Assembly (NCBI GenBank): GCA_903884815.1
Contig: CAISGE010000023.1
Location: forward strand, 252-64,251
Direction: 5' to 3'
Origin: Candidatus Omnitrophota bacterium
GTDB taxonomy: Bacteria > Omnitrophota > Omnitrophia > Omnitrophales > Aquincolibacteriaceae
Length of the DNA: 64,000 bases
Position numbers and translations under genes: made by a program. The notes below the pieces were generated by a model. It was not told where the DNA came from. It saw nothing but the letters and a program-made list of their open reading frames with translations, and ran no database searches. Each line of letters opens with the position of its first letter. Within the stretch, counting starts at the first letter, position 1. Below, piece by piece: positions 31,668 to 64,000 of the stretch.

Positions 31668-31761
31668 GGGCGCCTGAGACCTGTTGATGCTCTACACTTT
31701 CCGCCAAAACTTATTATTTCTTTTCCAAAATGGAAGTTTGGACGGCCCCAATCTCCGCTTC

Positions 31762-32706: not shown

Positions 32707-32738
32707 GGAAGGCTCCCATCCTTTCGATGAAAAAAAGA

Positions 32739-32811: not shown

Positions 32812-32919
32812 AAGAATGGGGATATGTTAGGCTGGAGAAAAAACTTTGTCGAGCTGTTTATCAACGCGGGTGGGATTATAAAGCAGCTTGGGCTAATGTC
32901 AAAGATTTTACTTTATCCT

Positions 32920-46036: not shown

Positions 46037-46070
46037 GATCTATAGCATAATAGACTAAAATTAGCCCCCT

Positions 46071-46781: not shown

Positions 46782-46791
46782 GAGGTTTCAA

Positions 46792-47154
46792 ATGCAGCCC
46801 AAAACGTTCGCGCTCATCATGACAGCATTTATTCTGATCTCTGTTATTAATCTTATCCGACGTCAAAAAATGACTTTCAAATACGCCCTTGCCTGGCTCA
46901 CATCCTGCACCCTCGTGATCATTTTGACGATCCAGGATTCGTGGATCGGAAGCCTCGCGGAATGGGCCGGTTTTGCCCTGACAAGCAATTTTATCTTCTT
47001 CCTGCTGCTTATCTTCGTGATTTTTTTCAGTCTCCTGCTGACCATCCACATCAACGAGCAGAACAGCAGGACAGAATCCCTCGCTCAGGCGCTTGCGAAG
47101 CTGGATCATCGTCTTAAGAAACTCGAAAAGGAAGGATCCTGCAGAGGCCACTAG
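46792..47154 (+). CDS. Small 4-TM membrane protein (DUF2304-like partner of GT2)
   Basis: 120 aa immediately downstream of the GT2 gene with a C-terminal amphipathic helix. Confidence 0.35.
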   Translation: MQPKTFALIMTAFILISVINLIRRQKMTFKYALAWLTSCTLVIILTIQDSWIGSLAEWAGFALTSNFIFFLLLIFVIFFSLLLTIHINEQNSRTESLAQALAKLDHRLKKLEKEGSCRGH

Positions 47155-47318
47155 TACTGTTCTCCATTTAATCTTGGGGTTAAGAGTACTGCCCAAGTGA
47201 TTTTTTCTTTTCGTTCATGGCGAATTGGGCTGCCCCAATTTCCGTCTCACGGAAACTGATAAGAATTGGGACTGTAACGCCAACTCATGTTTTAAATTGT
47301 TAGGCGGTACTAGCGGTT

Positions 47319-48134
47319 TTATTTTAACTGGAAGGGATTGCTGGTAGTTGTAGGATTTGTGTTTTCGGAGGATACGGGAGTAGCTGTCTCTTCAGAGAAA
47401 AAACTGGAATCCTGGGATTCCTTGACGGTGTTTTCAACATAAGGTTCGGCGGGACCTTCCTCCTGTTTGATCTTGGAGATCTCCCCTCCTCGAAGCACCA
47501 ACTCAAGATAAGATGCCAGATCTTCCCGGCCCATGCTCCTTAGCTTCGAGATGGACTGCAAAGTCAACGGTGATTTCCCCATCTGAATATAGGAAAGCCC
47601 GAGGGCGTAATAAGCCTCCGGGAAATCGGGGAAATGGTCGATCGTTTTTTGAAAATATTCTGCCGCTTCTTCCGGCCTCTCCTGAGTCGTCAGCGTAAAC
47701 CAACCAAGTCCGAAATAGGCCTTAACATACTGAGGGTCGACTTCGAGTGTTTTTTTGAAATACTTTCCGGCCAGACCGGGATTGTTCGCCGGCCCCGCAT
47801 AAGTAGAGGCGAGGTTGAAAAGAGCATCGGCCAGATTGGGATCGATCCGAAGGGCCTGCTGAAAGGACCCTATGGCACTTTGAATCGATTGATTCTGCTC
47901 CAAATAAATCGTTCCAATCAGGTTGTAGATCATCGCCTGGTTAGGATCCTCATCAAGAGAAGACTTCAAAACGGCGATCGACTCGTCGTAATTCCCCGCG
48001 GTAAAGGAATCCATCGCACGCTGGTAATCCTCACGGGAAATCGCCGCCCATGAAACATGGCCGCACAAGAGGCAAAGCCCCACTGCCAGGGCAAACACTT
48101 TCATATCACAAACTCTTAGTCCCTTGGATATCAC
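47319..48134 (-). CDS. TPR-repeat lipoprotein; last gene of the T2SS/ATPase operon
   Basis: Signal/lipobox (LLCGHVS) plus about 6 TPR repeats. Overlaps PilO2 by 29 nt. Confidence 0.6.
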   Translation of the reverse strand: MISKGLRVCDMKVFALAVGLCLLCGHVSWAAISREDYQRAMDSFTAGNYDESIAVLKSSLDEDPNQAMIYNLIGTIYLEQNQSIQSAIGSFQQALRIDPNLADALFNLASTYAGPANNPGLAGKYFKKTLEVDPQYVKAYFGLGWFTLTTQERPEEAAEYFQKTIDHFPDFPEAYYALGLSYIQMGKSPLTLQSISKLRSMGREDLASYLELVLRGGEISKIKQEEGPAEPYVENTVKESQDSSFFSEETATPVSSENTNPTTTSNPFQLK

Positions 48135-48720
48135 TGATATTCTCCGAAGCGATCAAAATACGTGAAATATCAAAGGTGCACTTGGTGATTTCAGAACCCT
48201 TGGACTTGGGGCCCATGGTATAGCCTTCGACCTGAAAAAGGTAATCGGATTGTTCCAGAAGGTTAATAAAGGAGAGGACGTTCCCCAGCTTCCCTTCGCA
48301 GTCAATGCTGGTCTTATAGACCCGAAAATTGGACTTCTCCTCCACGGCCCCTGGCCGCGTGTTGGTCACCGTCACCGATTGCTGCCCCGCAAGGGTCTCG
48401 ATCTTCTTGAGAAGCGCCGCGACGATCTGCTCCTGCGTCATTTCTCCGGTATCGAGATAAGTGCTGTATTTCGAATACTCCTGCAAAATCCCCTCACGGA
48501 AAGAAACGACCCGTTTGCTGCGCCGGAGACTCTCCTTCTGGGCTTTGCCCTCTGCCTCAAGGTTTTCCATTTGCGACGTAAATGGACCGATCATGAGCCG
48601 GTCCATCAGGGCGAAAGCCAGAAAGGTCGCTGCCACAATAAAAAGAACCCTGCTTTTGCCGCTCAGTTTTGAGAAGATCTCTTCGATGTTGAAGTTAATC
48701 TCTTTTTTTCCTTTAGCCAT
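48106..48720 (-). CDS. PilO/GspM-like alignment protein
   Basis: N-terminal TM, coiled coil and periplasmic ferredoxin-like domain; 204 aa. Confidence 0.5.
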   Translation of the reverse strand: MAKGKKEINFNIEEIFSKLSGKSRVLFIVAATFLAFALMDRLMIGPFTSQMENLEAEGKAQKESLRRSKRVVSFREGILQEYSKYSTYLDTGEMTQEQIVAALLKKIETLAGQQSVTVTNTRPGAVEEKSNFRVYKTSIDCEGKLGNVLSFINLLEQSDYLFQVEGYTMGPKSKGSEITKCTFDISRILIASENISDIQGTKSL

Positions 48721-48724
48721 ACCT

Positions 48725-50299
48725 TCAAAATCCCTTCGCCAGAACGCAATCGATCACAAAATCCGCAACATCGTCCTTGCCTTCCTTACGAGACTTTGTT
48801 TCTTTGGTCTCGACCTTGCTGAAATAATTGGACTGCATGAGCTGTGTCACAAAAGCAAAAACACGCGACATGGAAGCAGCCGTCCCCGCGATGGAGACAT
48901 TCCCCTCGCTGCTGTAATTCACCTGGGAAAGATAAAGATCATCTCCGATAAACCCGTTGATCACATTGAGCACCGTAAGCTCTTTCCCGCGACTTTCGAT
49001 CAGCTTCTTCACGATGCGGTTCTTGGTGGATACGACCTCCAGGCGCTTGGCCTCTTCGCCGAATTTCTCGCTGACCTGGTCCAGCTTCTGGTTGACAATT
49101 TTTCTGAAATAGATCTTACTGCCCATGATCAGACTCGCCAAAAGAAAGACCGCCATGATCAGGATCCCGAGCCCGAGGATGTCGCGACTCGATTCCCGGA
49201 CCCGTCGCCTCAGCTTCAATTCCGGCAGAAGCAGATTGACCTTTGCCTGATCCGAATGTGCCAGCACCGAAAAGATCTCAAAAAATGAAAACTGAGGCGC
49301 CTGCTGGACGATCCCCATCACAGACTGGCTAACATTAAAATACTTCCTGTAATCAAAACTTGAAACCTCGATCTTTCCGAAATACGGAGAATCTGGTTTC
49401 CTAAACTCTTCCTCAAGAGCAACGCTACTTTCGGTAAAACCGGTAACCCACAACCGCTCGACTTGCTGCCCCACCCCTTGATCATGATAGGCGCTGATGG
49501 AACGATTCAACTCCTGGGTAAAGTCATTCCGCGCCTGCTCGGGATTCTTCTTCAAGGCGGTCGCTCCCACGGGGATATTGCGCACAAAAACAACCTGGCT
49601 CCCGTCGATCACCGTCAGCTCCGAATATTCCTCCCCCACATGAAGGCCGCCCAAAGCGCCTTTTAATGGAGCTCCTTTCGCAGCCTCGATGTAAGTTGTT
49701 GCCATGCAATCAGATGCGATAACTACTTTTTCAGTCTGGAGCCGAGCGCCTTGAAAAATGGCGGCCAGGCGATCCGCGATCTTCCGGTTGACGATAAAAA
49801 GAAGAACGCTCGTAAAATGCTGAACCAGGGACTCGAGGCACACGAAATCGATTACGATCTCATCGCGCCCGTACGGAGTAAAACGGCCGGCCTGAAGATC
49901 GATGATCTTCGAGACTTCTTCTTTTTCTGTCGAAGGAATATCCACGTTCTTGAAGATGAATTGCTTGGAGGGAATAAGGCAAAGCGCCTGCGTCGGAACC
50001 ACCTTGCGGGCCTGGCAATAGAGCAGCAGGATGTGGGAGATCTCGGCGTCCGTCTTTTTAGAAACATCCTCGGCCGCCACGCCTTCAATGAGAAAACCGC
50101 CCGGGCCCATTTGGCCATGCCCGATCTTGAGGATCTCGGAACCCAGAGACACCACTAAGGTCACGGAGGGTGCGGAAAATTTCATGAACTTCAAAAAACT
50201 CTTGCTCGGCTCACCCGGCATGCTTGTTCTCCTAGCCCCTGCACTCTGTTTCATCCCGAACACGCGCCTCCCGTGGGCATCGGGATCATCCGAACCCAT
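48725..50299 (-). CDS. PilM-PilN (GspL-like) fusion protein, second copy
   Basis: Actin-like PilM domain, TM helix ILGLGILIMAVFLLASLIMG and a PilN-like domain. Likely start MKQSAG (50254), giving a 4-nt overlap with gspJ. Confidence 0.6.
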   Translation of the reverse strand: MGSDDPDAHGRRVFGMKQSAGARRTSMPGEPSKSFLKFMKFSAPSVTLVVSLGSEILKIGHGQMGPGGFLIEGVAAEDVSKKTDAEISHILLLYCQARKVVPTQALCLIPSKQFIFKNVDIPSTEKEEVSKIIDLQAGRFTPYGRDEIVIDFVCLESLVQHFTSVLLFIVNRKIADRLAAIFQGARLQTEKVVIASDCMATTYIEAAKGAPLKGALGGLHVGEEYSELTVIDGSQVVFVRNIPVGATALKKNPEQARNDFTQELNRSISAYHDQGVGQQVERLWVTGFTESSVALEEEFRKPDSPYFGKIEVSSFDYRKYFNVSQSVMGIVQQAPQFSFFEIFSVLAHSDQAKVNLLLPELKLRRRVRESSRDILGLGILIMAVFLLASLIMGSKIYFRKIVNQKLDQVSEKFGEEAKRLEVVSTKNRIVKKLIESRGKELTVLNVINGFIGDDLYLSQVNYSSEGNVSIAGTAASMSRVFAFVTQLMQSNYFSKVETKETKSRKEGKDDVADFVIDCVLAKGF

Positions 50300-50853
50300 T
50301 TACGATGATTCATTTCTTTCGTCTCAATTGTAATCTTAACGGTCTCGGGAAAACAATCTTTATTCCACTGAGACACCCATCGATAATCTTTAGCCCTGGA
50401 ATCATAGGTATAATACTCCAGTGCAAAAGAGATCACACGATCGAGGATGGAATCGGATGTCCTCGGCAGTTTTTTCGCTGCCGTAAGGACCTCTTCGAAG
50501 GCATATTTTCGGGATATCACAGTACCCGCTTTGGAATCAAACACGTATTGGAAATAGACGGGCACCGGTGGTACCGACAACCGAGTTCCGTCACTGCCTA
50601 GGGTCGCAAAAAAAAACTCGGTCTGGTTCCCCTTCATGGCCCACTGGGGGTCATGAAAAGCATTACGAAGGTCTCCGGTGAGCCGCTCCCCCCAAAGATC
50701 CAACTTCCATTCACCGCGATCCTTAGAGGCGCGCGTCCAAAGGCGGAGACCTTGAGCAAACGTGGCATAGATCGCAGTGCCCAGCGAGGCCGTAATCACG
50801 ATCACCACGATCATTTCAACGAACGTAAACCCCTTAGCCCTTCCAATCCGCAT
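50251..50853 (-). CDS. Minor pseudopilin GspJ/PilW-like
   Basis: Prepilin signal MRIGRAKG|FTFVEMIVVIVI; 200 aa. Confidence 0.55.
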   Translation of the reverse strand: MRIGRAKGFTFVEMIVVIVITASLGTAIYATFAQGLRLWTRASKDRGEWKLDLWGERLTGDLRNAFHDPQWAMKGNQTEFFFATLGSDGTRLSVPPVPVYFQYVFDSKAGTVISRKYAFEEVLTAAKKLPRTSDSILDRVISFALEYYTYDSRAKDYRWVSQWNKDCFPETVKITIETKEMNHRKWVRMIPMPTGGACSG

Positions 50854-51250
50854 AAGGAACCCTCAGATAAAAAGTCCGTTTTAGAAAACGACTCGAACCA
50901 GAGCTTCCCCAGGAAATCGACGCAACCCCTTCCATCAAATAGGCGTCGGGACCTATTTCGTGAAGAGTCATGTCGTACTGATAGGTCCGGTCATCTCCAA
51001 GAAGCGTCCCGCTGTCCTGCCGCTTCTGAAATTCCTTCCCCTTCTCAAGAACCTCCCGTCCAAGCTCCCAAATTTTCCCCTCAAGAAGTCGTTCCGCCTG
51101 ACTTGAGCGTTCGATGACACTCAAAGCTGAAAAGGAATTTAAAAAAACACGCTGCACCGAAACGATCCCCACCGCAAGTATGACCATACTGAGGATCAAT
51201 TCGACAAGGGTGAAGCCGTTGCGACCGCAGGGCCTTATCATCGGCGACAA
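50834..51250 (-). CDS. Minor pseudopilin GspI/PilV-like
   Basis: Prepilin signal …GRNG|FTLVELILSMVIL; 138 aa. Confidence 0.55.
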   Translation of the reverse strand: MSPMIRPCGRNGFTLVELILSMVILAVGIVSVQRVFLNSFSALSVIERSSQAERLLEGKIWELGREVLEKGKEFQKRQDSGTLLGDDRTYQYDMTLHEIGPDAYLMEGVASISWGSSGSSRFLKRTFYLRVPYADWKG

Positions 51251-51259
51251 GAACGCCTC

Positions 51260-51718
51260 CTACTTTTTAGCTTCGGCCGCGACGACCCAGTTCACGATAT
51301 CATCCTTCGTAGCGTCCGGCTTAGGATCCTTTCCAAGTGAAGAAAGGTCATAATCATGCGGCCGGTTCGTTCCGGGAGACTGGTATTGATAGGGCCTTCC
51401 CCAGGCATCCACCGGCATTTTTTCAAGGTAGGGGCCATTCCAATTCTCCGGAATGGGCGTGGTCGTCGGTTTTTGGAGAAGGGCGAGAAGTCCCTGCTCG
51501 GTCGAGGGCAAGAAACCATTGTCCAACTCATAAAGTTTCAGCGCCGTGGGAATATTGACTTCAATATCGGTTTTCGTGGCAACCTGACGCGCTTGATCCG
51601 AACGGCCGGCGAGCCGCGGCACCACCATGGCTGAAAGCGTCGCAATGATGATCACCACTAAAATGATCTCGATCAGTGAAAATCCACGCATAGCCCTTTT
51701 AGATGAGTCCATTCTCAT
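51260..51718 (-). CDS. gspG: T2SS major pseudopilin GspG
   Basis: G|FSLIEIILVV signal, LDNGFLPSTEQGLLAL and DAWGRPYQYQSPG motifs matching the GspG consensus (LDNGRYPTTEQGL; DPWGNPYQYRSPG). Confidence 0.85.
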   Translation of the reverse strand: MRMDSSKRAMRGFSLIEIILVVIIIATLSAMVVPRLAGRSDQARQVATKTDIEVNIPTALKLYELDNGFLPSTEQGLLALLQKPTTTPIPENWNGPYLEKMPVDAWGRPYQYQSPGTNRPHDYDLSSLGKDPKPDATKDDIVNWVVAAEAKK

Positions 51719-51734
51719 ATCTTACCCTCTCTGG

Positions 51735-52955
51735 TTAGGAAACAATGGCATCCATACTGAAGACTGGCAAAAGGATCGCGATCGCCACAAGACCCAAGGC
51801 CACTCCGATCACCAGGATCGTGAGAGGCTCGATGAGATGGGTCATGGACTGGGTATGATCCTCCACCTCCTGTTCATACCAATCTGCGATATCGCCGAAA
51901 GACTGCTCCAGGCGCCCGGTTTGCTCCCCGATCAAAAGGAGATGGATCGCGAAAATCGGAAAAGTCCCGAAACTCTTCAGCGACTCGCTGAGGCTCGCCC
52001 CCTGCTCCACCCGCTGCTCCGCCTGTGTGAGATCCTCTTTCATGGCCTCGTTGGAAACCGCGGGAATCCCGGTGCGGAGCGCTTTCAAAAGGGGAACGCC
52101 CCCTTTGATGAGAATTTCCATGGACCGGGCAAACAGCGCGAACTGCGCCATAAAAAGAATTTTCCCGATGCCTGGCAGCTTCATTTTCATACGATCCCAA
52201 TGAAGACGGTTCTCCGGGGCTTCAAGGCGCTTACGAAGCCATATCGCGAGTACCGCCGCCACTCCCAAAATCATTAGACCATAGTGCTGAAAAAATCCGC
52301 TCACGCCGATAAGCAACCGGGTTAAAAGAGGAAGCATTTGTCCGAGATCAGAAAAAAGTTTTGCAAATTTCGGGACCACATAGGTCAGAAGAAAAAAAAG
52401 TGCGGCGCTGCCGAGCAGAACAATAAATGCGGGATAGGTCAGCGCATTTCGAACCTTCCGGATGGTCGCCGACTGCTTTTCGGAACACTCGGCAAGACGC
52501 TGGAACGCATCATCGAGATGTCCCGTATGCTCCCCCAATTCGATCATTGCGACCGCAAAGGATCCGAAAGTTTTTGGATATCCGGCCATCGCCATGGAGA
52601 GAGGATTTCCCTGACGGACCTGTTCCTTTAAGGCCTCGAGGACGGGCTGAAGCCGCGGATTATGGGATTGTTCTGCCACAAGCACCAAGGCGGGAAGGAG
52701 TGGAACGCCGGATCTCAGAAGGCGTCCAAATTGTCTGTAAAAAACGGCAACGGCATGTCCCTCCCCCTTAAAGGAGGAGACCGCCATCTCCCCAAAGACA
52801 TGATTTTGTTTCCCCTCAGAATCCTCCTCGATCAACTCGACCGGGATAAGTCCCATCTCGTTGATCTTTTCGATCGCTTCATCCTTCGTTTCCGCAGAGA
52901 GGAGCCCCTTGACAAGTTCCAACCCCTTTTTGGCCTGATATCTAAACTGCCTCAT
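51735..52955 (-). CDS. gspF: T2SS inner-membrane platform protein GspF
   Basis: 406 aa with two GspF repeats and three TM helices. Confidence 0.85.
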   Translation of the reverse strand: MRQFRYQAKKGLELVKGLLSAETKDEAIEKINEMGLIPVELIEEDSEGKQNHVFGEMAVSSFKGEGHAVAVFYRQFGRLLRSGVPLLPALVLVAEQSHNPRLQPVLEALKEQVRQGNPLSMAMAGYPKTFGSFAVAMIELGEHTGHLDDAFQRLAECSEKQSATIRKVRNALTYPAFIVLLGSAALFFLLTYVVPKFAKLFSDLGQMLPLLTRLLIGVSGFFQHYGLMILGVAAVLAIWLRKRLEAPENRLHWDRMKMKLPGIGKILFMAQFALFARSMEILIKGGVPLLKALRTGIPAVSNEAMKEDLTQAEQRVEQGASLSESLKSFGTFPIFAIHLLLIGEQTGRLEQSFGDIADWYEQEVEDHTQSMTHLIEPLTILVIGVALGLVAIAILLPVFSMDAIVS

Positions 52956-53599
52956 GGTTTTCCAAAGCTCGTTTCAAAAAAGGCGGTCAGCAATTTTCTG
53001 TTCTCCGCATTCATCGGAAGAAAGATCGCTCCGACGAGAACCGACCGCTCCCCTCCCTGCACAGCTGCCTCCGCAGAATAGACCACACGAATGATCTGGA
53101 CCTTGGCGATAAAGTCTTCCGGACCTTTGCCACCCGTCAAAACCGTTTTGATCTCAAGGATGCTCCCCGGCTCAAGAACATCCGCCAGTGAAAAATCGCC
53201 CCACTCTTTTTTGAAATCCTCAAAAGACCTCTGCGGATCAGCAACCGAAAAACAGACCCCCCCCGGGCTGAAATCTTTCTCGTGTCCCTGAAACTCGAGT
53301 TTTAACAAAGGACCTATTAAGGGAAGAAGGAGACGCGAGCTCCCCCCATATTCAACGACATGGAACGCCAAGGGAGAATTGGAAGCAATACGGCGACACT
53401 GCCGTCCCTTTTTAAAACGGACGAGCAACATTTCACCCAGGTTTTCTTTTTGACGTTGATTCATCATTACTTCGGTCATTTCGGTCATGGAAAAACCCAT
53501 ACCACTGATACTTTCAGCGGCATCCTCCTCCGTCTCGGAAAAAAGTATCCCTTTAATAAGATCCGATCCCTTCTTGGCCTGGTATCTGAATTGTTTCAT
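52952..53599 (-). CDS. GspF-N-terminus-like segment fused to a PilZ (c-di-GMP receptor) domain
   Basis: N-terminal 45 aa, MKQFRYQAKKGSDLIKGILFSETEEDAAESISGMGF, are about 60% identical to the GspF N-terminus. PilZ motifs RQCRR (RxxxR) and DFSPGG (DxSxGG). C-terminal 120 aa paralogous to the GspE C-terminal PilZ (EFQGHxxDxSxGGxxFSVxDP). Confidence 0.65.
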   Translation of the reverse strand: MKQFRYQAKKGSDLIKGILFSETEEDAAESISGMGFSMTEMTEVMMNQRQKENLGEMLLVRFKKGRQCRRIASNSPLAFHVVEYGGSSRLLLPLIGPLLKLEFQGHEKDFSPGGVCFSVADPQRSFEDFKKEWGDFSLADVLEPGSILEIKTVLTGGKGPEDFIAKVQIIRVVYSAEAAVQGGERSVLVGAIFLPMNAENRKLLTAFFETSFGKP

Positions 53600-55908
53600 G
53601 GGGTTGGCTCCTTATTCGCTTCACAGAATTTCACTAAACGGTGTCTGTCTTCACTATGAATGGCGAGAAAGGAAGCACCGACGCGCCGAGGTTCTGCGCT
53701 TCCCGGGGCTACGGGGGGATGGGTCACTCTAAGTATTTTGACCATCGCCATACATTCCACGGGCTTTCCTCCATCTCGAATCAGGATCTTGAGATCCAGA
53801 ATGGTCCCGGATTCAAAGGTTTTCCCAAACGCGTAGGCCCCGGCATCACCCCCCGTCTGTTTTTCAGCAATCTTCGGATCATCAACTGAAAAATAAATCC
53901 CTCCGGCGCTAAGATCCCGGGCATGACCTTGGAACTCAAAGGCGGCGAGCTTTGCCTTTGCCGGAGAACTCAGCGGCATGATCCCTTTATACTCAATGAT
54001 CCTGAAGGTCACGGGGACATCGCAAGCCACCCGCTGAAACTTTCTTAAATTCGTAAATTGGAAACCCTGCGTTTTCTGGGAGGGCGGCGTCCCGGCGGCA
54101 AGGGCCGGGGGAATCCTTGACACACCCTGTGTCCCCGCGTCACGAACGGAACCTTCGGAGAGCTCGCCTCCCGGGTTTTCCTCTAGTAACTCAAGCCTGT
54201 CTTCCTCCGTCGTCTCCAGAACTTCTTCGGGGGTCGTCACACCCGCAAGAACCTTCTCCCAGCCGCTAAAACGAAGCGAGGTCATCCCCTGTCGGGTGGC
54301 CGCAAGTTTGATCGTCTCAGCCGTCATTCTTTCCATGATGAGTTTCCGGATCTCCTCGGTCAGAGGCAGAAATTCATGGATCGCGATCCTCCCGCGAAAT
54401 CCGGTCTGATTGCATTCCTCACAACCAACCCCTCGAAAAACACGGATGTCTCCTTGAGGGATCCCGTATTCACTCTCGATCAACTTCTTGATCTCCGGAG
54501 AAACTTGCATATCCTCCGCTTTACAGTGAGGACAAATAACGCGTATCAAACGCTGCGCGATAAATGCCACAACACTCGACGCGATCAGATAGGGCTCCAC
54601 CCCGATATCGAGAAGGCGCGTGACACCGCTCGCGGCATCGTTCGTATGCAACGTGGAGAGGATCAGATGACCCGTCAGCGCGGCACGAATAGCGATATCC
54701 GCCGTTTCCAGGTCCCGGACCTCGCCCACCATCATCACATCGGGATCCTGGCGGAGCATACTGCGGAGACCGTTGGCAAAGGTCAATCCGATCTCGGGCG
54801 CGACATGAATCTGGCTGATGCCTTCCAACTCATATTCCACGGGATCCTCGATCGTGATGATCTTCCGCCCCGGGATATTCAACCTGTTGAGCGCCGCATA
54901 AAGGGTGGTGCTCTTCCCGCTTCCCGTCGGCCCCGTCGCAAAAATGATCCCGTTATTCCGCCCCAGTAGCTCTTCAAGAAGCTTCTGATGTCTTGGCTCA
55001 AAGCCCAGCTCTTCCAGCTTGAAGATATTCTTTCCGGGCAGAATGCGAATGACGACGCTCTCGCCGCTTGCGGTAGGAATAAAAGACACCCGGAGATCCA
55101 AGGTCTCGTCCAAGGTTTTGACCCTGAGCTTCCCATCCTGCGGCAATCGTTTTTCGGCAACATTCAGATTCGCCATGATCTTGATGCGGGAGAGCATCGG
55201 CGCGAAAAAATCTTTCAACTCCCGAGGGACGGGAGCCTCCTGCAAAAGACCATCCACTCTATAGCGCAGCCGGATGCCCGAAGGCAAAGGCTCCAGATGG
55301 ATATCGCTAGCCCTCCGTTTATAGGCATCCAGAATGATCTGGTTAACCACATGAGCCACGGAGGGAGCCGCAGCGAGCTTTTCGATATCCTCAACCTCTT
55401 GAGCTGTGGAGACTGCCACATGGCGGTCTTGCGCCGGGGTTTCGGAAAGGATTCTCTCGACGGTATCGGCCGCCAGTCCGTAATAGCGCTGCAGCATTTC
55501 CGCGATCTCGTGCTCTGAAGCAAAGCACACTTCAATGTCAAAACCCAATGCAAAACGAACCTCGTCAAGCGTATGGATATCCAGAACCCGGGAGCTTGCG
55601 ATAAGGAGCTTCCCGCCCTCCAGGCGGACGGGGAAAAACTTGTAATACGAGGCGAACTTTACCGGCACCCGTTTAAAAATAGAGATATCGGGCGTCGTCT
55701 TTTTTAAACTTATAACCGGACAACCGGTCTCTTTAGAGAAGATCTCCAAAAGAGCATCCTCCTTGAGAAGCCCGGCCTCAAGAACAAGATGCAAAAAGGG
55801 TTGCCCGGAGTGCTCCGCTTTTTTAAAGATCTCCTCAATCTTCCCCTTGGGCAAGACCCCCGAGTTTAAGAGGATCTTGTAGGAAGCCCTGTCCGGAGCG
55901 ATTTTCAT
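53596..55908 (-). CDS. gspE: T2SS ATPase GspE with C-terminal PilZ domain fusion
   Basis: 770 aa: T2SSE_N domain, Walker A GPTGSGKST, tetracysteine CPHC…CEEC, then an extra ~200 aa carrying RKFQR (RxxxR) and DLSAGG (DxSxGG) PilZ motifs. Confidence 0.85.
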   Translation of the reverse strand: MKIAPDRASYKILLNSGVLPKGKIEEIFKKAEHSGQPFLHLVLEAGLLKEDALLEIFSKETGCPVISLKKTTPDISIFKRVPVKFASYYKFFPVRLEGGKLLIASSRVLDIHTLDEVRFALGFDIEVCFASEHEIAEMLQRYYGLAADTVERILSETPAQDRHVAVSTAQEVEDIEKLAAAPSVAHVVNQIILDAYKRRASDIHLEPLPSGIRLRYRVDGLLQEAPVPRELKDFFAPMLSRIKIMANLNVAEKRLPQDGKLRVKTLDETLDLRVSFIPTASGESVVIRILPGKNIFKLEELGFEPRHQKLLEELLGRNNGIIFATGPTGSGKSTTLYAALNRLNIPGRKIITIEDPVEYELEGISQIHVAPEIGLTFANGLRSMLRQDPDVMMVGEVRDLETADIAIRAALTGHLILSTLHTNDAASGVTRLLDIGVEPYLIASSVVAFIAQRLIRVICPHCKAEDMQVSPEIKKLIESEYGIPQGDIRVFRGVGCEECNQTGFRGRIAIHEFLPLTEEIRKLIMERMTAETIKLAATRQGMTSLRFSGWEKVLAGVTTPEEVLETTEEDRLELLEENPGGELSEGSVRDAGTQGVSRIPPALAAGTPPSQKTQGFQFTNLRKFQRVACDVPVTFRIIEYKGIMPLSSPAKAKLAAFEFQGHARDLSAGGIYFSVDDPKIAEKQTGGDAGAYAFGKTFESGTILDLKILIRDGGKPVECMAMVKILRVTHPPVAPGSAEPRRVGASFLAIHSEDRHRLVKFCEANKEPTP

Positions 55909-55917
55909 GGGAATCTG

Positions 55918-58286
<2,369 letters not shown>

Positions 58287-58307
58287 AGAGCCTCTTCTTT
58301 TTAAACT

Positions 58308-59045
58308 TCAGCTGTTCGACAACTTCTCTTTAACCAGGCTTGTGGCTTCCACGATGGCATTCGCGAAGCTTCCATTCAGCACCAGCGTCCCGACCTGCAC
58401 GGCCACTCCCGCCACCAATTTTTCATCCACAACCTCTTCCACCTGAAGGTCCGGCGCACCAATTCTATCGGCAAGCACTTGGCGCAACATTTCTTTTTCT
58501 TCCTTCTTAAGAACCAGTGCGGTCCGGATCGTGGGATGTTGCCCCTTGAGATCCATGGAGCCCAGGTCGGATTGCTTCGCCTGCTCCACAAAATTCAGGA
58601 TAAACTGCTCGTGGATCATCCTCTTGAGTTTTTCATCATAAACATCCTTTAAAACATCCGCTGTAAAATCCACGATCTTTTTGCTGGCCGCAATTTCCAT
58701 CTCTTTGGCGAATTGCGCGCGAGATCCATGGGCCTTGGCCAGAATATCTTCGGCCTCCGCGCGTGCTTTTTTAAGGATCTCATCCTCTTTCTTGTGAACT
58801 TCTTCCATGGCCTGGCTGGCGAGCTTTTCCGCGATCGCAGATGACTCTTCCTTCTTGGCCTGGTACTCCTTTTCCGCCGTTTCGAGTTTCTCGGTAAGAT
58901 CCTTTTGCTTCTTCACCAGATCCTCATAAACAATCCCCAGCCTTTTGACCGCGCTCTCGGTATCACCTGAGAGGATTTTTTTCAGAAAATACACCACCGC
59001 AGAAAAAACAATGACCTGAAGGACAATAAATTGAAGCGTCAGCAT
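58308..59045 (-). CDS. F-type ATPase b/delta fusion (peripheral stalk)
   Basis: N-terminal TM plus a long charged helix (b-like) and a C-terminal OSCP/delta-like end (AGVAVQVGTLVLNGSFANAI). Confidence 0.55.
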   Translation of the reverse strand: MLTLQFIVLQVIVFSAVVYFLKKILSGDTESAVKRLGIVYEDLVKKQKDLTEKLETAEKEYQAKKEESSAIAEKLASQAMEEVHKKEDEILKKARAEAEDILAKAHGSRAQFAKEMEIAASKKIVDFTADVLKDVYDEKLKRMIHEQFILNFVEQAKQSDLGSMDLKGQHPTIRTALVLKKEEKEMLRQVLADRIGAPDLQVEEVVDEKLVAGVAVQVGTLVLNGSFANAIVEATSLVKEKLSNS

Positions 59046-59060
59046 ACAAAGTTCCTCTCT

Positions 59061-59282
59061 TTAAAGAGCTTTTGGCGAAAAGATCTGAAAGACCACCAGA
59101 AGTGAAATGATCGATGCCGCCTCCGCGAAAAGCAGCATCAAAATAACGCCCAGGTAGATCTTCGGAGCCGCGGAAGGATTCCTCCCCAGGGCCTGGATCG
59201 TTGCGGCGCCCACAACGGCGATTACAATGGAAGGTCCGATAACGGCGATGAACATCACGGCGATCACGATAAAATTTTGCAT
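59061..59282 (-). CDS. F-type ATPase c subunit (proteolipid)
   Basis: 73 aa helical hairpin: Gly/Ala-rich helix 1 with Gln, loop GRNP (compare RQP), and helix 2 LLFAEAASIISLL with the carboxylate Glu. Confidence 0.75.
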   Translation of the reverse strand: MQNFIVIAVMFIAVIGPSIVIAVVGAATIQALGRNPSAAPKIYLGVILMLLFAEAASIISLLVVFQIFSPKAL

Positions 59283-59376
59283 AGACTATAATCCTTTCTT
59301 CGAACGCTGTTCCCTTTTCAATTCCACGGGTAACAATACCGTGTCACATTCCTCTAATTTCAAAGTCAATGAGGCA

Positions 59377-59655
59377 CTAAATATCCCAGAGCTGCTTGTA
59401 GTTTTTATAACTCGGATCAACCTCAGCGATAATGCGACATTGATTATTCCTAAAACTCAAAACCCCGACTTTGATCGGAATACTTTCATGATCCGCAATC
59501 TTCAGCTCCCCTTCCGGGATAGAAGACACAAGGGGATGATGAAAGGCCAAGAGCTCGAACTCCCCATCATCGCCTGTCAAATAGACCGATTCAACAAGAT
59601 CATCAAAGGCAAGTCCCTTCAGGCTCAACACTTGCAGATTGAATCTTGGCTTCAT
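59377..59655 (-). CDS. F-type ATPase epsilon-subunit homolog (beta-sandwich only)
   Basis: 92 aa with an N-terminal beta-sandwich pattern (…GEFELLAFHHPLVSSIPEGELKI…). Lacks the C-terminal helical hairpin. Confidence 0.55.
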   Translation of the reverse strand: MKPRFNLQVLSLKGLAFDDLVESVYLTGDDGEFELLAFHHPLVSSIPEGELKIADHESIPIKVGVLSFRNNQCRIIAEVDPSYKNYKQLWDI

Positions 59656-59664
59656 AATCCCCCT

Positions 59665-61161
59665 TTAGGCCACTTCAACAGCCGATTCCGCCTCTGCAGT
59701 CAAGAATTTCTTCTTGATGACTGCCACGTAATCCTCCAAAACGCGTTTCATCCTGCTCTTGATCTCATCCGTGAGAGCTTTCTTATCGCGAATAAGGGCA
59801 AAGAGCGGTGTATCTGCCTTCCGTGCGAAAGCCTCAAAGCCCGCGATGAACTCCTGCACGTGGGGAACTTCCAAGTCTTTAAACAAATTTTCAGCCTTGG
59901 CATAAAAGAGCATGATCTGTATCTCGATCGTTACGGGTTTATTCGCCGGCTGAGTGAGCAGCGCCTGAAGGATTTTGCCCGAGCGGAGACTTTCACGCGT
60001 CTCCTCCGACGCGCCCGAGGCCTGCAACTTACTCGCACGCAAAAGCTCCTTAAATTGAATAAATTCCATACGTAATGTTTTAGAAATCTCCTTCGTCGCT
60101 TTCCATTGCACTTTGCTTCCGACGCGTGAAACCGAAAGACCGATATCGACGGCAGGACGGAAGCCTTCATTAAAGAGAGAACCGTTCAAAAAAAGCTGCC
60201 CGTCGGTCATGGAAACAAGATTGGTGGGGACGAAAGCTGTGAGATCCCCCTCTTGAAGTTCCACCACGGGAATAAAGGTCATGGAACCGCTACCGTGCTT
60301 TGCATCAAGCTGTGCGGCCCGCTCGATCATGCGCGAGTGCAGATAAAAAATATCCCCGGGGTAAGAATCGCGTCCCGGCGGCACGCCCATCAGAAGGGAG
60401 AGTTCGCGATAGGCCCAGGCATGTTTCGTGAAATCATCGAAGAAAACAAAGACATCTTTACCGCGGTCCCTGAAATATTCCCCGATCGAGCATGCCGCAT
60501 AAGGCGCCAGATATTGCTGACCCGGCGAGCTTGAGGCCGGCGCGCAGAGGATAGTGGTATACTCGAAACATCCGTGCTCTTTAAAAAGAGAAACGACTTT
60601 TCCCATCGAGGAGGCCGTCTTTCCAATCGCACAATAAATACAGAAAACATCTTTTCCTTTTTGGTTGAGAATAATATCCGTACCGACAGTGGTTTTTCCG
60701 GTCATTTTATCACCCAGGATCAAAGACCGCTGCCCCTTGCCGAGAGGGAGCATCGAATCGATCAGCTTCACGCCGGTTTCAAAGGAGCGACTTAATGTAG
60801 CGCGATCCATAATTGCCGGGGCATCATTAAAATAAGGGATGTATTCTTCCAGTTTGAGGGTCCCCAACCCATCCATCGACTCCCCGAGAGGGTTCATGAT
60901 CCTGCCCACGGAGGCTGGCCCTACCGGCATGCTGAAGGGCTCCAGTGTCGCGATCGCCGGATTACCCGGCGACAAGGGCTCATTCTCTTTGATGATCAAT
61001 ATTTGGGCCGCATTCAAGTCACACCCCATGAGCACACCCTGAGTCCCATACCCAAACTGAACCAATTGCCCTAGGAAACAGTTCTGGAGCCCCGTAACCT
61101 GGACGATGCAACCGCTCACAGATTTGATGATTCCAGTTTCCTTAAACCGTAATTCTTCCAT
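59665..61161 (-). CDS. F-type ATPase alpha-subunit homolog (divergent)
   Basis: P-loop GDKMTGKT (canonical GDRQTGKT), N-terminal beta-barrel, C-terminal helical bundle; 498 aa. Confidence 0.85.
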   Translation of the reverse strand: MEELRFKETGIIKSVSGCIVQVTGLQNCFLGQLVQFGYGTQGVLMGCDLNAAQILIIKENEPLSPGNPAIATLEPFSMPVGPASVGRIMNPLGESMDGLGTLKLEEYIPYFNDAPAIMDRATLSRSFETGVKLIDSMLPLGKGQRSLILGDKMTGKTTVGTDIILNQKGKDVFCIYCAIGKTASSMGKVVSLFKEHGCFEYTTILCAPASSSPGQQYLAPYAACSIGEYFRDRGKDVFVFFDDFTKHAWAYRELSLLMGVPPGRDSYPGDIFYLHSRMIERAAQLDAKHGSGSMTFIPVVELQEGDLTAFVPTNLVSMTDGQLFLNGSLFNEGFRPAVDIGLSVSRVGSKVQWKATKEISKTLRMEFIQFKELLRASKLQASGASEETRESLRSGKILQALLTQPANKPVTIEIQIMLFYAKAENLFKDLEVPHVQEFIAGFEAFARKADTPLFALIRDKKALTDEIKSRMKRVLEDYVAVIKKKFLTAEAESAVEVA

Positions 61162-61182
61162 AATCGATAATTCCCTTTATGA

Positions 61183-62601
61183 TTACTTTTTCTCTGCCGG
61201 AGGTTCCGCCGGAGGAGGCGGAGCCTGAGAATCGCTCCCTTTCACTTCTGTAACTCCCTTTTTAGGAGCAAACTTATTTTTCTGTAGTTGTTTTAGCATG
61301 ATCAGGTAAAAAGCCGTCGAAACGACAGCCAGGAAAATAATGATCCCGAAGATGATCCACCAGGTTGCCGCGGTATTGGGCTTGAGCCCCATGGCCATCA
61401 GCACAATATCTTTCATGTCTGCAAGTTTTTTGATGAAATCTTTAATCTTTTCCGCGATCGCCGCATCATCTTTTTTGAGACCGGCTTCCCCAACCATTTG
61501 CTGGAGATTGTGAAGTTTCGCCTTAGCCACATTCATTTGCTGGCTGTTCAGCACAAAAGCTCGCATCCTATCTTCCAAAGCCAGTGAAGACTCAAGCTCG
61601 GCCTGCAACTTTGTGATTCCCGACAAAATCTCAAGGATCTGGCTCCCCTGAGCTTCGCAATATTTCCCGAACGAAGAATCCTTGAGAAGATCCATTAACC
61701 TTTCGGTCTGTTCCTTCATAAACTTGATCTCCTGGTCCGAGACGCGCCAGACATCCTTGACCGTAATCATATATTTTTTGGATTCCTTCGCGGCAAACTG
61801 GTCCTGTTTTTCAAGCGCGTAGGTTTTCTGCGCCGCGTCATAGAGCAGCTCAAAATCGAGTTTGTCGATCACATCGTCAGCCGCAATCTCCTTGGGCAAC
61901 AGTGAGCGCACCGTCATCGCTTTCGGCTCAGAAGAGGGATTCTCAGCGGTGATCAGAAACCGGGCCTGGGGGATACCTGCTTTCTTTTCATCTTCGAGCT
62001 TGCGCATTGCCGCGAGCGACAGAGCGTTTGACTGGATTTCCTGAAGCTGAAGCACGTGGGCACGATAGAGCTCAATATGCTGCTTAATGCCAACCGGTTT
62101 ACTTTGCTCTTCAAGAATGCGGTCAATCCCCCCCTGAGCTTTTTCGTAAAGCAGCTGCGCCGTGTCCAAGTATTTCGTACCTTTCAGCCCGTTGATCTGC
62201 GCTTCAAGGTCCTTTTTGATGGCATCGACCTGCTCGGGCATGACCTGCCAGACATCCCGCACACGGACCTCAAAGGTGCGAGTTTCGCGTGGTTTGAGTT
62301 CCACTTCTCCCGTAAGCATAAAGGCCTTGTTATCCGGATCAAAACGGACTTCGAGCCCAGCCTTATCGATGATATCTTTGGCAGGATCCACTTCTCCGGG
62401 TAAAGGCTGAGAAATCACCGTCTTGAGAGACTGACTTTCAGAGGGATTGACGGCGAGAATTTTGAACTTCACATCCGAGGCGGCATGCAGCGGACAAGGC
62501 AGGGAAAGCCCCAAGGCCCCAAGAATTAAAACAAAGTTGATAATTCGTCGCATGCGCGCTCGCGATCCTTGATGTTGGGTTCCACAAATAACAGAAGTCA
62601 T
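61183..62601 (-). CDS. Secreted, C-terminally membrane-anchored protein with two internal ~190-aa repeats and a Pro-rich tail
   Basis: Signal peptide MRRIINFVLILGALGLSLPCPLHA; internal duplication (…FMLTGEVELKPRETRTFEVRVRDVWQVMPEQVDAIKKDLE… versus …YMITVKDVWRVSDQEIKFMKEQTERLMDLLK…); C-terminal TM WWIIFGIIIFLAVV and PPPPAEPPAEKK tail. Sits 22 nt upstream of the alpha-subunit gene. Confidence 0.4.
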   Translation of the reverse strand: MTSVICGTQHQGSRARMRRIINFVLILGALGLSLPCPLHAASDVKFKILAVNPSESQSLKTVISQPLPGEVDPAKDIIDKAGLEVRFDPDNKAFMLTGEVELKPRETRTFEVRVRDVWQVMPEQVDAIKKDLEAQINGLKGTKYLDTAQLLYEKAQGGIDRILEEQSKPVGIKQHIELYRAHVLQLQEIQSNALSLAAMRKLEDEKKAGIPQARFLITAENPSSEPKAMTVRSLLPKEIAADDVIDKLDFELLYDAAQKTYALEKQDQFAAKESKKYMITVKDVWRVSDQEIKFMKEQTERLMDLLKDSSFGKYCEAQGSQILEILSGITKLQAELESSLALEDRMRAFVLNSQQMNVAKAKLHNLQQMVGEAGLKKDDAAIAEKIKDFIKKLADMKDIVLMAMGLKPNTAATWWIIFGIIIFLAVVSTAFYLIMLKQLQKNKFAPKKGVTEVKGSDSQAPPPPAEPPAEKK

Positions 62602-62668
62602 GGGTTATTTAACGGCAACTCATGCAGCGACCCTAAGACACACTATTCAGAACACTGGTTTTTTTCGT

Positions 62669-63997
62669 CTATTTTTTTTCTTCCCCAAGCTCAAGCCAGG
62701 ATTTGACGATCGCCACAGGCATTTCTTTTCCCTCACCAAGTTTCTCTTTAGTACTGGCATCCGTAGCTTCTTTGATAGCTAAGAGATACGACTTGATCTC
62801 GTCAAGCTTGCCCTGGACAAGGCCTAAGTTCGAGGCATCGCCCGTTCCCATCTTTTTGAGCTGCTCGCCGATAAATCCAAGATCTTTTGCCTGATCGTTC
62901 GCCAGTGCCACAAGTTTGTTGACCAGGACTTCCGCTTTTTGATTCGTATCTTGTCCCTCTTTGGCGATAGAAGTCGAGAGCTCCTGAACTTTGGTAACAA
63001 GATCTTCGATGGATTTCATTCTTTCAGTAAGCGCCTTGCCATTGGATTTGCCTACGGTTTGCGCAATACTCGTTACGGTATTCAAAATGGCCGCCGTGGT
63101 AGACTCGATATCTGAGATTGTATTTGCCTTCCCTCCCAACGTCTTGATCGCGGCCCAGTCCATTTGTGCGGAACTTAAGGCCACCATCCCTCCCCAATTC
63201 ATCCCAGCCCTCGTCAGGGATTTCAAGTCATTCCAATTCGTTCCGCTTGTGCTCATCGCTGCGAGATCTTCCCAGTTCACGCCTGCTTCCGACAAAGCGC
63301 TCAGATCCGCCCAGTTAACCCCTGCATTTGTCAACAATGTCAGATCATCCCAATTCACACCCGCAGCCGCCAGCGCTGCAACTTTGGACCAGTTAACGCC
63401 GGCTTTGGAAAGCCCCTCAATATCTGCCCAATTAACACCGGACTTGGACAGCGCATCAATACCACTCCAATTAATATGTTGGCGAGACATAGCATTTATA
63501 TCAGCCCAAAGAACGCCCGACTTCGACAACACTGCGATGTCATCCCAGTTAACATGTCCATTCGCGATTTCCTGGATCTGGGCCTTCATAGTCCCAAGAT
63601 CCAGAGTTTGAAGTGAAGTCACAAGTGCCTGCATGGCATTCCCATCTAACCCCCCGAACGCCCCAGCGAGAGCGCCAATCTGCCCAAAGACCGTCGCGGC
63701 GCCCGCTGTATCCGTGGCAGCTCCGATTCGCATTCCGAGCGTCGCCACATCGGACCAATTGATGCCAGCCCTAGACTGACCGGAGATATCCGTCCAATTT
63801 ATCCCACTTCTTGTCATATTGGAGAGATCTCCCCAATTCACACCGGATTTTGACATTGATTCAAGATCGGCCCAATTCACGCCCCCGCGAGACAAGGCTT
63901 CAATACCATCCCAATTAACGCCCCCACGTGACAACGCCTCAATACCGTTCCAGTTTACTCCCGCCTTCGACAAGGCATCAACCCCCATCCAATTCAT
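62669..63997 (-). CDS. Repeat protein with more than 20 tandem 13-residue GVNWxD(L/I)xxLSxA repeats and a C-terminal coiled-coil domain
   Basis: Period 13 aa (LSKAGVNWNGIEA / LSRGGVNWDGIEA / LSRGGVNWADLES / MSKSGVNWGDLSN …). The ORF reaches the window edge, so the N-terminus is probably truncated by the window. Confidence 0.5.
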   Translation of the reverse strand: MNWMGVDALSKAGVNWNGIEALSRGGVNWDGIEALSRGGVNWADLESMSKSGVNWGDLSNMTRSGINWTDISGQSRAGINWSDVATLGMRIGAATDTAGAATVFGQIGALAGAFGGLDGNAMQALVTSLQTLDLGTMKAQIQEIANGHVNWDDIAVLSKSGVLWADINAMSRQHINWSGIDALSKSGVNWADIEGLSKAGVNWSKVAALAAAGVNWDDLTLLTNAGVNWADLSALSEAGVNWEDLAAMSTSGTNWNDLKSLTRAGMNWGGMVALSSAQMDWAAIKTLGGKANTISDIESTTAAILNTVTSIAQTVGKSNGKALTERMKSIEDLVTKVQELSTSIAKEGQDTNQKAEVLVNKLVALANDQAKDLGFIGEQLKKMGTGDASNLGLVQGKLDEIKSYLLAIKEATDASTKEKLGEGKEMPVAIVKSWLELGEEKK

Positions 63998-64000
63998 GCC

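Follow-up and report, generated by a model that had tools for sequence, protein, structure and literature searches.

What would an F-type rotary ATPase do in an operon that otherwise encodes a secretion-type machine and a giant protein? The question is raised by a block of 17 genes on the minus strand (47319-63997) of a 64,000-nucleotide stretch of DNA, hereafter the window, from contig CAISGE010000023.1 of a Candidatus Omnitrophota bacterium. F-type ATPases are almost always bioenergetic enzymes, and the only well-supported cases known to us of their reuse as mechanical motors are the F1-like systems of Mycoplasma. Here a second, independent lineage keeps the alpha, beta, gamma, c and b/delta subunits strongly conserved, without the ion channel subunit, in a secretion-type operon that also carries the gene of a giant, putative surface protein. 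The block makes up the downstream portion of a super-operon conserved in Omnitrophota, and its gene content bears on what such an ATPase may be used for.

The 17 open reading frames (ORFs; g1 to g17 from the upstream end, Table 1) follow each other in an unbroken series that is 99% coding. The distances between neighbours, from g1 to g17, are 67, 21, 9, 94, 15, 21, -4, 9, -4, -4, 16, 9, -20, -49, 4 and -29 nucleotides (nt), with 4-nt overlaps at g7/g8, g9/g10 and g10/g11; the boundaries between modules are tight too, 21 nt separating g2 from alpha and 9 nt beta from GspE. An earlier note, made on this DNA from its letters, had described such a packed minus-strand unit of 17 genes, and the coordinates agree with it; it had counted one exception to gaps of at most 22 nt, and here the tight packing stands while the exceptions are two (67 and 94 nt). 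The note had also considered that internal promoters or terminators might split the block. A scan of 46000-64000 for sigma-70 promoters and intrinsic terminators, with expectations drawn from shuffles and with a consensus that may miss the promoters of this phylum, found no excess of promoter-like sites (4 observed, 14.2 expected) or of terminator-like sites (24 observed, 21.8 expected), and none of either kind in the intergenic gaps of the block. Rfam and tRNA scans had no match in the block. At its 3' boundary lies a convergent DUF2304 gene, which occupies the same convergent place in relatives and is 52-75% identical to theirs. The ORF antisense to this gene (46765-47196, minus strand, 143 residues) reaches 38-48% identity to relatives, below the DUF2304 gene; it is probably spurious and not an 18th gene of the block.

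Comparative synteny, which the earlier note had put forward as a check, extends the unit well beyond the window. Related loci came from a profile scan of one genome per GTDB species (29 loci), from a metagenome scan (27 more) and from exact look-ups, which added others; after removal of duplicates 54 loci remained, with gamma identities of 34-87%, and the denominators used for adjacency count the loci with sequence available. The gene order in these 54 loci is essentially invariant: giant gene, g2, F-type ATPase, GspE-PilZ, GspF, GspG, the I- and J-type pseudopilins, PilM-PilN, the PilO/GspM-like protein and the TPR protein. Repeats of the NW type are found upstream of g2, co-oriented and adjacent, in 31/32 loci; g2 adjoins alpha in 36/37, c adjoins b/delta in 47/47, gamma adjoins beta in 41/41, beta adjoins GspE in 36/36 and GspE adjoins GspF in 30/31, while PilM-PilN is next to the PilO-like gene in 24/24 and the latter next to the TPR gene in 23/23. 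With median identities of 76% for c and beta, 72% for GspG, 70% for alpha, 50% for gamma and 43% for g2, c ranks with the best conserved proteins of the locus. Homologues of the gamma-like protein form at least 135 clusters, and those with a name are all from Candidatus Omnitrophota; the named homologues of g2 are from Candidatus Omnitrophota or Omnitrophica, save one labelled Geobacteraceae, and the titled loci are all from Omnitrophota. One metagenome-assembled genome, JACPXL01, holds two complete copies of the giant-gene/F-ATPase/T2SS arrangement on different contigs (L032 and L035; T2SS, type II secretion system).

Judged by their sequences, g3 to g8 are an F-type rotary ATPase set in an unusual order (alpha, epsilon, c, b/delta fusion, gamma, beta) and without an a subunit; this a-less rotary ATPase is the most unusual feature of the locus. 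The earlier note had rightly listed ATPase genes here, and had missed that they amount to a near-complete F-type rotary ATPase lacking a. Alpha and beta both exceed the cut-offs of the canonical models, and alignments with PDB entries show their catalytic equipment intact: the P-loops and the catalytic Glu are present, beta retains its motifs (DNVFRF among them), and alpha keeps GDKMTGKT and the Arg-finger motif GLSVSRVG. Beta aligns end to end with the yeast and bovine proteins and has an N-terminal extension of about 28 residues. Alpha is short of about 20 N-terminal residues, beginning around position 23-31 of canonical alpha (TIGR00962 and PDB alignments); in canonical enzymes this N-terminal segment binds delta (PMC12994834). 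At the level of the canonical NCBIfam families, gamma (Table 1), epsilon (41 against 67 bits, N-terminal domain only) and delta (21.7 against 57.5 bits) fall short, although gamma, epsilon, delta and b pass the cut-offs of their Pfam domains. The stalk protein g6 has one N-terminal transmembrane (TM) helix, and its best NCBIfam match, the N-ATPase b subunit (TIGR03321), covers its full length far below the cut-off (49 against 225 bits).

Two features of the small subunits deserve attention. Epsilon consists of the beta-sandwich domain alone, without the C-terminal helical domain, and its gene is missing from a subclade (L026, L031, L032, L034, L035, L055) in which 10-94 nt separate alpha from c; epsilon is therefore dispensable for the role of the module. 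In the c subunit, FAEAAS aligns to FTEALA of the c subunits in PDB, its Glu falling on the ion-binding Glu, and the RNP loop is present; this Glu and the loop are found in 47/47 orthologues. As for the a subunit, ATP-synt_A (PF00119) had no match among the scanned window ORFs of at least 130 residues. None of the 54 loci offers space for an a gene, the largest unassigned stretch between alpha and beta being about 300 nt, and none has one within 10 kb; a crude motif search found no a-type RxxxN in the six-frame translation of 960 kb.

Downstream of beta, g9 to g17 encode the inner-membrane part of a pseudopilus machine. Pfam and NCBIfam matches confirm the calls made in the earlier note for GspE-PilZ, GspF, GspG, two minor pseudopilins, the PilM-PilN fusion and the TPR protein, and the non-canonical composition that it described stands. 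We read the block as T2SS-like, despite nearly tied scores of g9 with GspE (564 bits, cut-off 630, the top model) and PilB (549, cut-off 676), because it combines a GspG-type pilin, I- and J-like pseudopilins (with a K-like one detached from it), a GspL-type fusion and a GspM match, because it has no PilT, and because the window holds a separate Pil cluster. GspG is the sole Gsp protein of the block to pass its equivalog cut-off; the PilA model matches only its 53 N-terminal residues (23.6 bits, cut-off 400). GspF is the top-scoring model for g11, though below its cut-off, and family level is not reached for type IVa components either: besides PilB, PilC stops at 260 of 700 bits and PilM at 49 of 133, next to the GspG-type major pilin. 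The PilM-PilN fusion g15, with a TM helix at 374-392, presumably represents the GspL-type domain architecture, given the homology of T2SS and type IV pili; no GspL model matched it. Thus the components that the earlier note had named, PilM-PilN and PilO in place of GspL and GspM, are as described, and the contrast is largely one of naming, the fusion having the GspL architecture and g16 a weak GspM match. The last gene, g17, has weak matches of the PilW/Tgl/PilF type.

GspE bears both types of c-di-GMP (cyclic di-GMP) sensor, MshEN and PilZ. Its PilZ motif reads RKFQR ... DLSAGG, and the motifs RxxxR and [D/N]xSxxG occur in 30/32 GspE orthologues. By BLASTP, its neighbour g10 is a chimera of recent date that joins the N-domain of GspF to the PilZ domain of GspE: residues 1-112 resemble residues 1-112 of g11 (34% identity, E 7e-15), residues 61-211 resemble the PilZ domain of g9 (residues 617-765; 34% identity, E 2e-25), and the motifs RQCRR and DFSPGG are present. 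This gene is found only in the window, L013 and L045, and is missing from the closest relative on a long contig.

The machine of the block is not complete by itself. No secretin, GspC or prepilin peptidase is encoded in it or in the same block of any related locus, the minor pseudopilins include no GspH, and PilT is missing from both block and window. As the earlier note had stated, the only Secretin-domain protein of the window lies at 3243-5078, and the GspK-like and pilin genes (the latter at 34674-35168) lie outside the operon. The GspK-like protein, whose homologue sits within the operon in the distant locus L069 (15538-16557), is possibly a tip component of the same machine. The window secretin belongs to a second, separate type IV filament cluster on the minus strand (198-8887), which is a better candidate for a true type IVa pilus (T4aP).

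The block opens with the end of a very large gene. The nominal ATG of g1 at 63997 is part of a GMNW repeat motif, and its reading frame is still open at 64000, so that the first gene is incomplete; it encodes 17 copies of a 13-residue unit with the consensus LSxxGVNWxDI, followed by a helical tail. The repeats had been recognized from the start, but not that they form only the end of a giant protein, one that bears a Sec-type signal peptide. In relatives the giant proteins consist of hundreds of such units and span 7,153 to about 16,800 residues: the ORF is complete in L039 (7,153 residues), reaches at least 8,495 residues at the end of a 539-kb contig in L004, and in L042 is split into 582 and 16,204 residues by a 1-nt frameshift (11700-11760), which is either a sequencing error or real. 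The last 3,312 residues of the L039 protein contain 206 motifs, spaced by exactly 13 residues in 176/205 intervals, and no TM helices. Contigs nearly all break within the giant gene; N-terminal fragments found with g1 (P0187, P0189, P0193 and P0195) open with a Sec-type signal peptide, followed by a stretch free of repeats and then by the repeats themselves. Next to it, g2 has no Pfam or NCBIfam match. Its AlphaFold2 (AF2) model, a confident one (predicted local distance difference test, pLDDT, 81.7), has an N-terminal signal/TM helix, two tandem units, each made of a seven-stranded beta-sandwich and a three-helix bundle, and, at the C-terminus, a TM helix that ends in a short tail: g2 is a bitopic protein facing the periplasm. 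Foldseek found nothing meaningful for it in PDB (best E 0.039, TM-score below 0.2).

Five relatives show the 5' end of such a giant gene, and in four of them (L042, L070, L071, L072) a secretin module lies just upstream on the same strand. It comprises an AAA_16/ATPase_2 protein (GspA/ExeA-like), a GspB/C-like protein of 210-233 residues with weak T2SSC/T2SSB matches (25.4 bits, cut-off 27), a secretin, a TPR protein and usually two FGE-sulfatase-domain proteins; the fifth, L041, has the FGE-sulfatase gene only (8262-10004). We infer that this module, whose counterpart here would fall outside the window, is linked to the F-ATPase block from the shared repeat family and from matching flanking genes. 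Indeed, a pair formed by a GT2 and a DUF2304 gene adjoins the block convergently at its TPR end, both in the window and in most loci; in L070 this pair stands ahead of the AAA-secretin module and points the same way, as though the entire super-locus had been flipped around this anchor. With this link, the suggestion of the earlier note that the machine is possibly non-secretory is weakened; the note had also regarded a gspCD pair immediately past the end of the window as decisive against a non-canonical machine, and relatives come near to this in having a secretin upstream, though beyond the giant gene and not directly past the window end. One or two FGE-sulfatase-domain proteins stand directly upstream of the giant gene (L070 5851-8989, L071 5131-8262, L072 2769-5982, L041 8262-10004). 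This family includes PorK/GldK of the type IX secretion system (T9SS), and the proteins are possibly modifying enzymes or structural partners.

Taken together, these genes suggest an export or deployment system for a giant surface protein, gated by c-di-GMP and driven by ATP, a composite that we hold with moderate confidence. The giant repeat protein, exported through Sec, would be the cargo or a working part of the T2SS-like pseudopilus machine, the secretin half of which would be encoded on the far side of the giant gene. Machine and secretin module would export the protein or deploy it onto the cell surface, where it might contact host or prey cells, and the activity of GspE would be gated by c-di-GMP via MshEN and PilZ. 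The F-type module would then be an ATP-hydrolysing rotary motor rather than an ATP synthase, because there is no a subunit to provide an ion path and because epsilon is without the inhibitory C-terminal helices or missing. Gamma, epsilon and the c-ring would turn against the b/delta stator, the c-ring and the b/delta stalk would anchor the motor in the inner membrane, and the mechanical work would be fed to export or deployment, perhaps through g2 or GspF as coupling partner. Such a motor role would be analogous to that of the Mycoplasma F1-like ATPases implicated in surface machinery. The mechanical coupling, for which this analogy is the guide, is the weakest step of the composite.

Several observations weigh against this composite. 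An invariant Glu in the c-ring is what would be expected if ion translocation were retained, and an a subunit could be encoded in the genome outside the visible 64 kb. No contig spans both ends of a giant gene. In L020 (1-7300), and in no other of the loci, the F-ATPase/T2SS block has no giant gene directly upstream, a GT2 and a DUF2304 gene directly preceding g2. The AF2 model of the repeat region of g1 was unusable (pLDDT 41.5), so that a role of the giant protein as fibre or adhesin is conjectural. Finally, no Peptidase_A24 (prepilin peptidase GspO/PilD) was found in the window or is on record in the related loci; as the substrates bear prepilin motifs of the form G|F..xE, such a peptidase must exist elsewhere.

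Another view of the locus comes from Seymour et al. 2023 (Nat Microbiol, PMC10066038), whose main text proposes a type IVa pilus working with an F-type ATPase in attachment to host cells and surface motility on them. Transposed to the window, the filament would be a true extracellular pilus, powered in the manner of Mycoplasma mobile gliding, and the giant protein an independent adhesin. The matches to PilM, PilN and PilW-like families are in line with this, as are the near tie of GspE with PilB and the strong sub-threshold matches to the gliding-ATPase models MMOB1660 and MMOB1670. We nevertheless judge it unlikely, for the major pilin is of the GspG type and resembles PilA over its N-terminus only, the I-, J- and K-like minor pseudopilins are T2SS-type, PilT is missing, and a distinct PilB/PilC/PilQ/PilO/PilM cluster exists at 198-8887. 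Besides, alpha and beta score higher on canonical atpA and atpD than on the Mycoplasma models, whose cut-offs they do not reach, and a giant gene that is co-oriented and adjacent in 31/32 loci hardly looks independent.

Could the ATPase be an ion-translocating enzyme after all, with a distant a gene, serving as the bioenergetic enzyme of the cell or as a local source of the membrane potential that Sec/T2SS export would use, and merely co-transcribed with its neighbours? Its alpha and beta at equivalog level, its b/delta stator and the ion-binding Glu kept by c would suit such an enzyme. The lack of an a gene within 10 kb in 54 loci and in the 64-kb window does not, nor do the scores of gamma, epsilon, c and b/delta far below family cut-offs, the missing delta-binding segment of alpha (for the role of delta, PMC12994834) and an epsilon that a subclade can dispense with; the literature, moreover, places such alpha subunits in a non-respiratory clade and describes, for the phylum, enzymes of V/A type or separate respiratory ones of F type (PMC10066038, main text; 10.64898/2026.06.07.730766). 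We consider this enzyme role improbable. Still further down stands a chance juxtaposition of a giant gene, an atp-like operon and a gsp operon that are functionally unlinked. The gaps of 67 and 94 nt could hold promoters missed by the sigma-70 consensus, but the identical order in 54 non-redundant loci spanning 34-87% gamma identity, together with overlaps and abutment where the modules meet (beta to GspE 9 nt, g2 to alpha 21 nt), makes coincidence extremely improbable.

It is near certain that the locus is of the Omnitrophota type already published (PMC10066038). According to the main text of that paper, a non-respiratory F-type ATPase adjoins "type-4a pilus" clusters in every Omnitrophota class; it is present in 56/111 Velamenicoccia species, V. 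archaeovorus LiM included, and lies at most 10 kb from pilus genes in 57/66 contigs. The window shares with this locus type, as the main text presents it, the phylum, the F-type alpha and beta genes directly beside type IV filament genes (9 nt from beta to GspE here, the two adjoining in 36/36 loci, well within 10 kb) and the proposal of a host interaction. It differs in that the pilus was classed there as T4aP and giant ORFs were treated separately, whereas the pseudopilin set here is T2SS-type. A 2026 preprint (10.64898/2026.06.07.730766) finds alpha and beta in 125/176 complete genomes and gamma in 30/176 by strict KEGG Orthology calls, and subunits of V/A-type ATPases in 70-99% of the genomes of class Gorgyraeia outside the order Pluralincolimonadales; these figures fit a divergent, non-bioenergetic F-type set.

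Giant genes beside secretion loci are also on record for the phylum. West-Roberts et al. 2023 (bioRxiv 10.1101/2023.11.21.568195) report them after a gspD/E/F-type locus and before pilZ genes. These and the giants of the 2026 preprint have in common with ours a very large gene flanked by T2SS- or type IV pilus-type genes, PilZ-domain genes after it, and assemblies that break inside. The published ones, however, are multi-domain, multi-TM proteins of 30,000-147,000 residues preceded by a gspD/E/F-rcpC locus, whereas the giant here has about 7,000-17,000 residues of nearly pure 13-residue repeat, no TM helices in the parts seen, and an F-type ATPase after it. The main texts of both papers do not mention an F-type ATPase beside a giant gene in that context.

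Among better-studied systems, Mycoplasma offers the precedent for the motor. There, a Type 3 F1-like ATPase is required for the surface effector system MIB-MIP, whose genes lie just upstream of it in the same operon, by a mechanism that is still unknown (PMC12994834). This 'F1-like X0' system (PMC12994834) and the Type 2 gliding ATPase of M. mobile (PMC3369863, PMC7052211) resemble the window in an operon that unites F1-like alpha, beta, gamma and epsilon and has surface effector genes upstream, in an alpha without the N-terminal helix and in the lack of an a subunit; ATP hydrolysis is needed for the surface function there. The accessory membrane protein of X0, which has a signal peptide and, at its C-terminus, TM helices, is comparable to g2 by a resemblance of topology only, homology not being shown (PMC12994834). 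The Mycoplasma clusters, on the other hand, have no c and no b/delta (a 12-TM protein instead) and no type IV filament genes, and their NCBIfam cut-offs are not attained here (MMOB1660 384.6 of 600 bits, MMOB1670 415.4 of 850, MSC_0619 266.6 of 520, MSC_0618 366.7 of 570). Judged by hidden Markov model scores, alpha lies nearer to canonical atpA, at 513 bits, than to either MMOB1660 (385) or MSC_0619 (267). The N-type ATPase operon (atpDCQRBEFAG) also has a b/delta-like fused b subunit of about 246 residues and epsilon, c and b in mid-operon, but AtpQ, AtpR and a are lacking in the window, the canonical models give alpha and beta the higher scores, and the alt_F1F0 cut-offs are missed (alpha 457 against 750.5, beta 454 against 752, b 49 against 225 bits).

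With the canonical T2SS (GspC-O) the locus shares GspE, F and G, I-, J- and K-like proteins, the L-like fusion, an M-like protein and prepilin motifs; in relatives, a secretin with GspA-like and GspB/C-like proteins stands upstream of the NW-repeat giants. It departs from it in that only GspG passes its cut-off, GspH and a prepilin peptidase are missing, GspK is detached, GspE carries MshEN and PilZ, a giant gene and an F-type ATPase divide the genes into two parts, and the presumed cargo has 7,000-17,000 residues.

The locus type and the ATPase-pilus pairing are thus known already, and the window is a further instance; its value is in anatomical details and testable predictions. These details are an F1-c-b/delta set that lacks a, an epsilon that is truncated or missing, a giant repeat gene within the operon and the likely upstream secretin module. 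The main texts of the published accounts of the Omnitrophota locus make no mention of the lack of an a subunit, the retention of c and b/delta, the truncation of epsilon, g2 or a 13-residue-repeat giant gene heading the operon, nor was the combination of an invariant c Glu despite a missing a with a truncated or absent epsilon found in them. If the motor reading is true, the rotary ATPase and the type IV filament machinery, both among the best-studied bacterial nanomachines, become linked, and one gains a handle on how uncultured Omnitrophota attach to or attack cells and export proteins of more than 7,000 residues. One may go further and imagine a hybrid nanomachine in which the a-less F1/c-ring is a purely mechanical, ATP-driven rotor of the inner membrane, coupled via g2, GspF or b/delta to a T2SS-type platform and secretin; together they would thread, spool or actuate a repeat fibre of 7,000-17,000 residues on the surface of an ultra-small predatory or epibiotic bacterium. 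This picture is speculative and we regard it as doubtful; if true, such a hybrid of rotor and pseudopilus would secrete or deploy protein in a way that no studied system is known to use.

Table 1. Genes of the block, its boundary and the related filament genes of the window, with the matches on which each assignment is based.
Feature	Coordinates	Strand	Evidence
g1, C-terminal 442+ residues of giant secreted repeat protein	62669..64000	-	13-residue repeat spacing; ORF open at window edge
g2, conserved 472-residue protein	61183..62601	-	65 homologue clusters, all hypothetical; followed by alpha
g3, F1 alpha-like	59665..61161	-	TIGR00962 atpA 512.8 bits (cut-off 484)
g4, epsilon-like, 92 residues	59377..59655	-	PF02823 48.8 bits; TIGR01216 profile positions 2-80 of 130
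g5, c subunit, 73 residues	59061..59282	-	PF00137 30.5 bits (cut-off 24)
g6, b/delta (OSCP) fusion, peripheral stalk	58308..59045	-	PF00213 OSCP and PF00430
g7, divergent gamma-like central stalk	57384..58286	-	PF00231 57.1 bits; TIGR01146 32.9 bits (cut-off 194)
g8, F1 beta-like catalytic	55918..57387	-	TIGR01039 atpD 513.9 bits (cut-off 463)
g9, GspE/PilB-type assembly ATPase, N-terminal MshEN and C-terminal PilZ	53596..55908	-	PF00437 420 bits, PF05157, PF07238
g10, lineage-specific chimera, 215 residues	52952..53599	-	BLASTP against g11 and g9; no family
g11, GspF/PilC platform protein	51735..52955	-	PF00482 194 bits; TIGR02120 GspF 338.5 bits (cut-off 424)
g12, GspG major pseudopilin, prepilin motif G|FSLIE	51260..51718	-	TIGR01710 147.7 bits (cut-off 88.85); PF08334 107 bits
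g13, minor pseudopilin, weakly GspI-like, G|FTLVE	50834..51250	-	N_methyl; gspI 22.3 bits (cut-off 44)
g14, minor pseudopilin, GspJ-like, G|FTFVE	50251..50853	-	PF11612 T2SSJ 21.5 bits; gspJ 28.8 bits (cut-off 65)
g15, PilM (actin-like), TM helix and PilN fusion	48725..50299	-	PF11104, PF05137; PDB PilM 2ych E 1.6e-5
g16, bitopic PilO/GspM-like	48106..48720	-	weak NF040576 GspM match, 25 bits; follows PilM-PilN
g17, exported TPR protein, last gene of block	47319..48134	-	TPR families; TIGR02521 PilW 60.7 bits, Tgl 44.8 bits, both below cut-off
Convergent DUF2304 gene, 3' boundary	46792-47154	+	PF10066 67.6 bits
Detached GspK-like minor pseudopilin	41924..43027	-	PF21687 T2SSK_1st 61.9 bits; NF037980 100.3 bits (cut-off 130)
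Second cluster, GspF/PilC	198-1541	-	
Second cluster, PilB with MshEN	1528-3225	-	
Second cluster, secretin (pilQ)	3243-5078	-	
Second cluster, unassigned gene (182 residues)	5075-5623	-	
Second cluster, PilO	5620-6165	-	
Second cluster, 528-residue PilM-containing protein	6177-7763	-	
Second cluster, 364-residue coiled-coil-like protein	7793-8887	-	

Between the super-operon and the detached GspK-like gene, the window encodes an STT3/PglB-type oligosaccharyltransferase of 868 residues (43430-46036, minus strand) beside GT2 glycosyltransferases (46071-46781, plus; 37478-38245, minus), a hint that proteins are N-glycosylated here, the pilins or the giant protein possibly among them. In L020 the GT2-DUF2304 pair is preceded by an M12-like/TPR protein similar to one encoded in the window at 35652-37481 (minus strand), the latter having 609 residues, with an N-terminal metallopeptidase-like region (Reprolysin_5/Peptidase_M10 matches) and a long TPR array. 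Five tRNA genes (Gly-GCC, Leu-TAG, Lys-CTT, Arg-TCG and Phe-GAA) are found among housekeeping genes at 28100-32812 (minus strand) and are unrelated to the super-operon. On the plus strand, two adjacent TPR proteins of 596 and 597 residues (11266-13056 and 13213-15006), whose TPR matches fall in the same part of the C-terminal half of each, have the look of a tandem duplicate pair.

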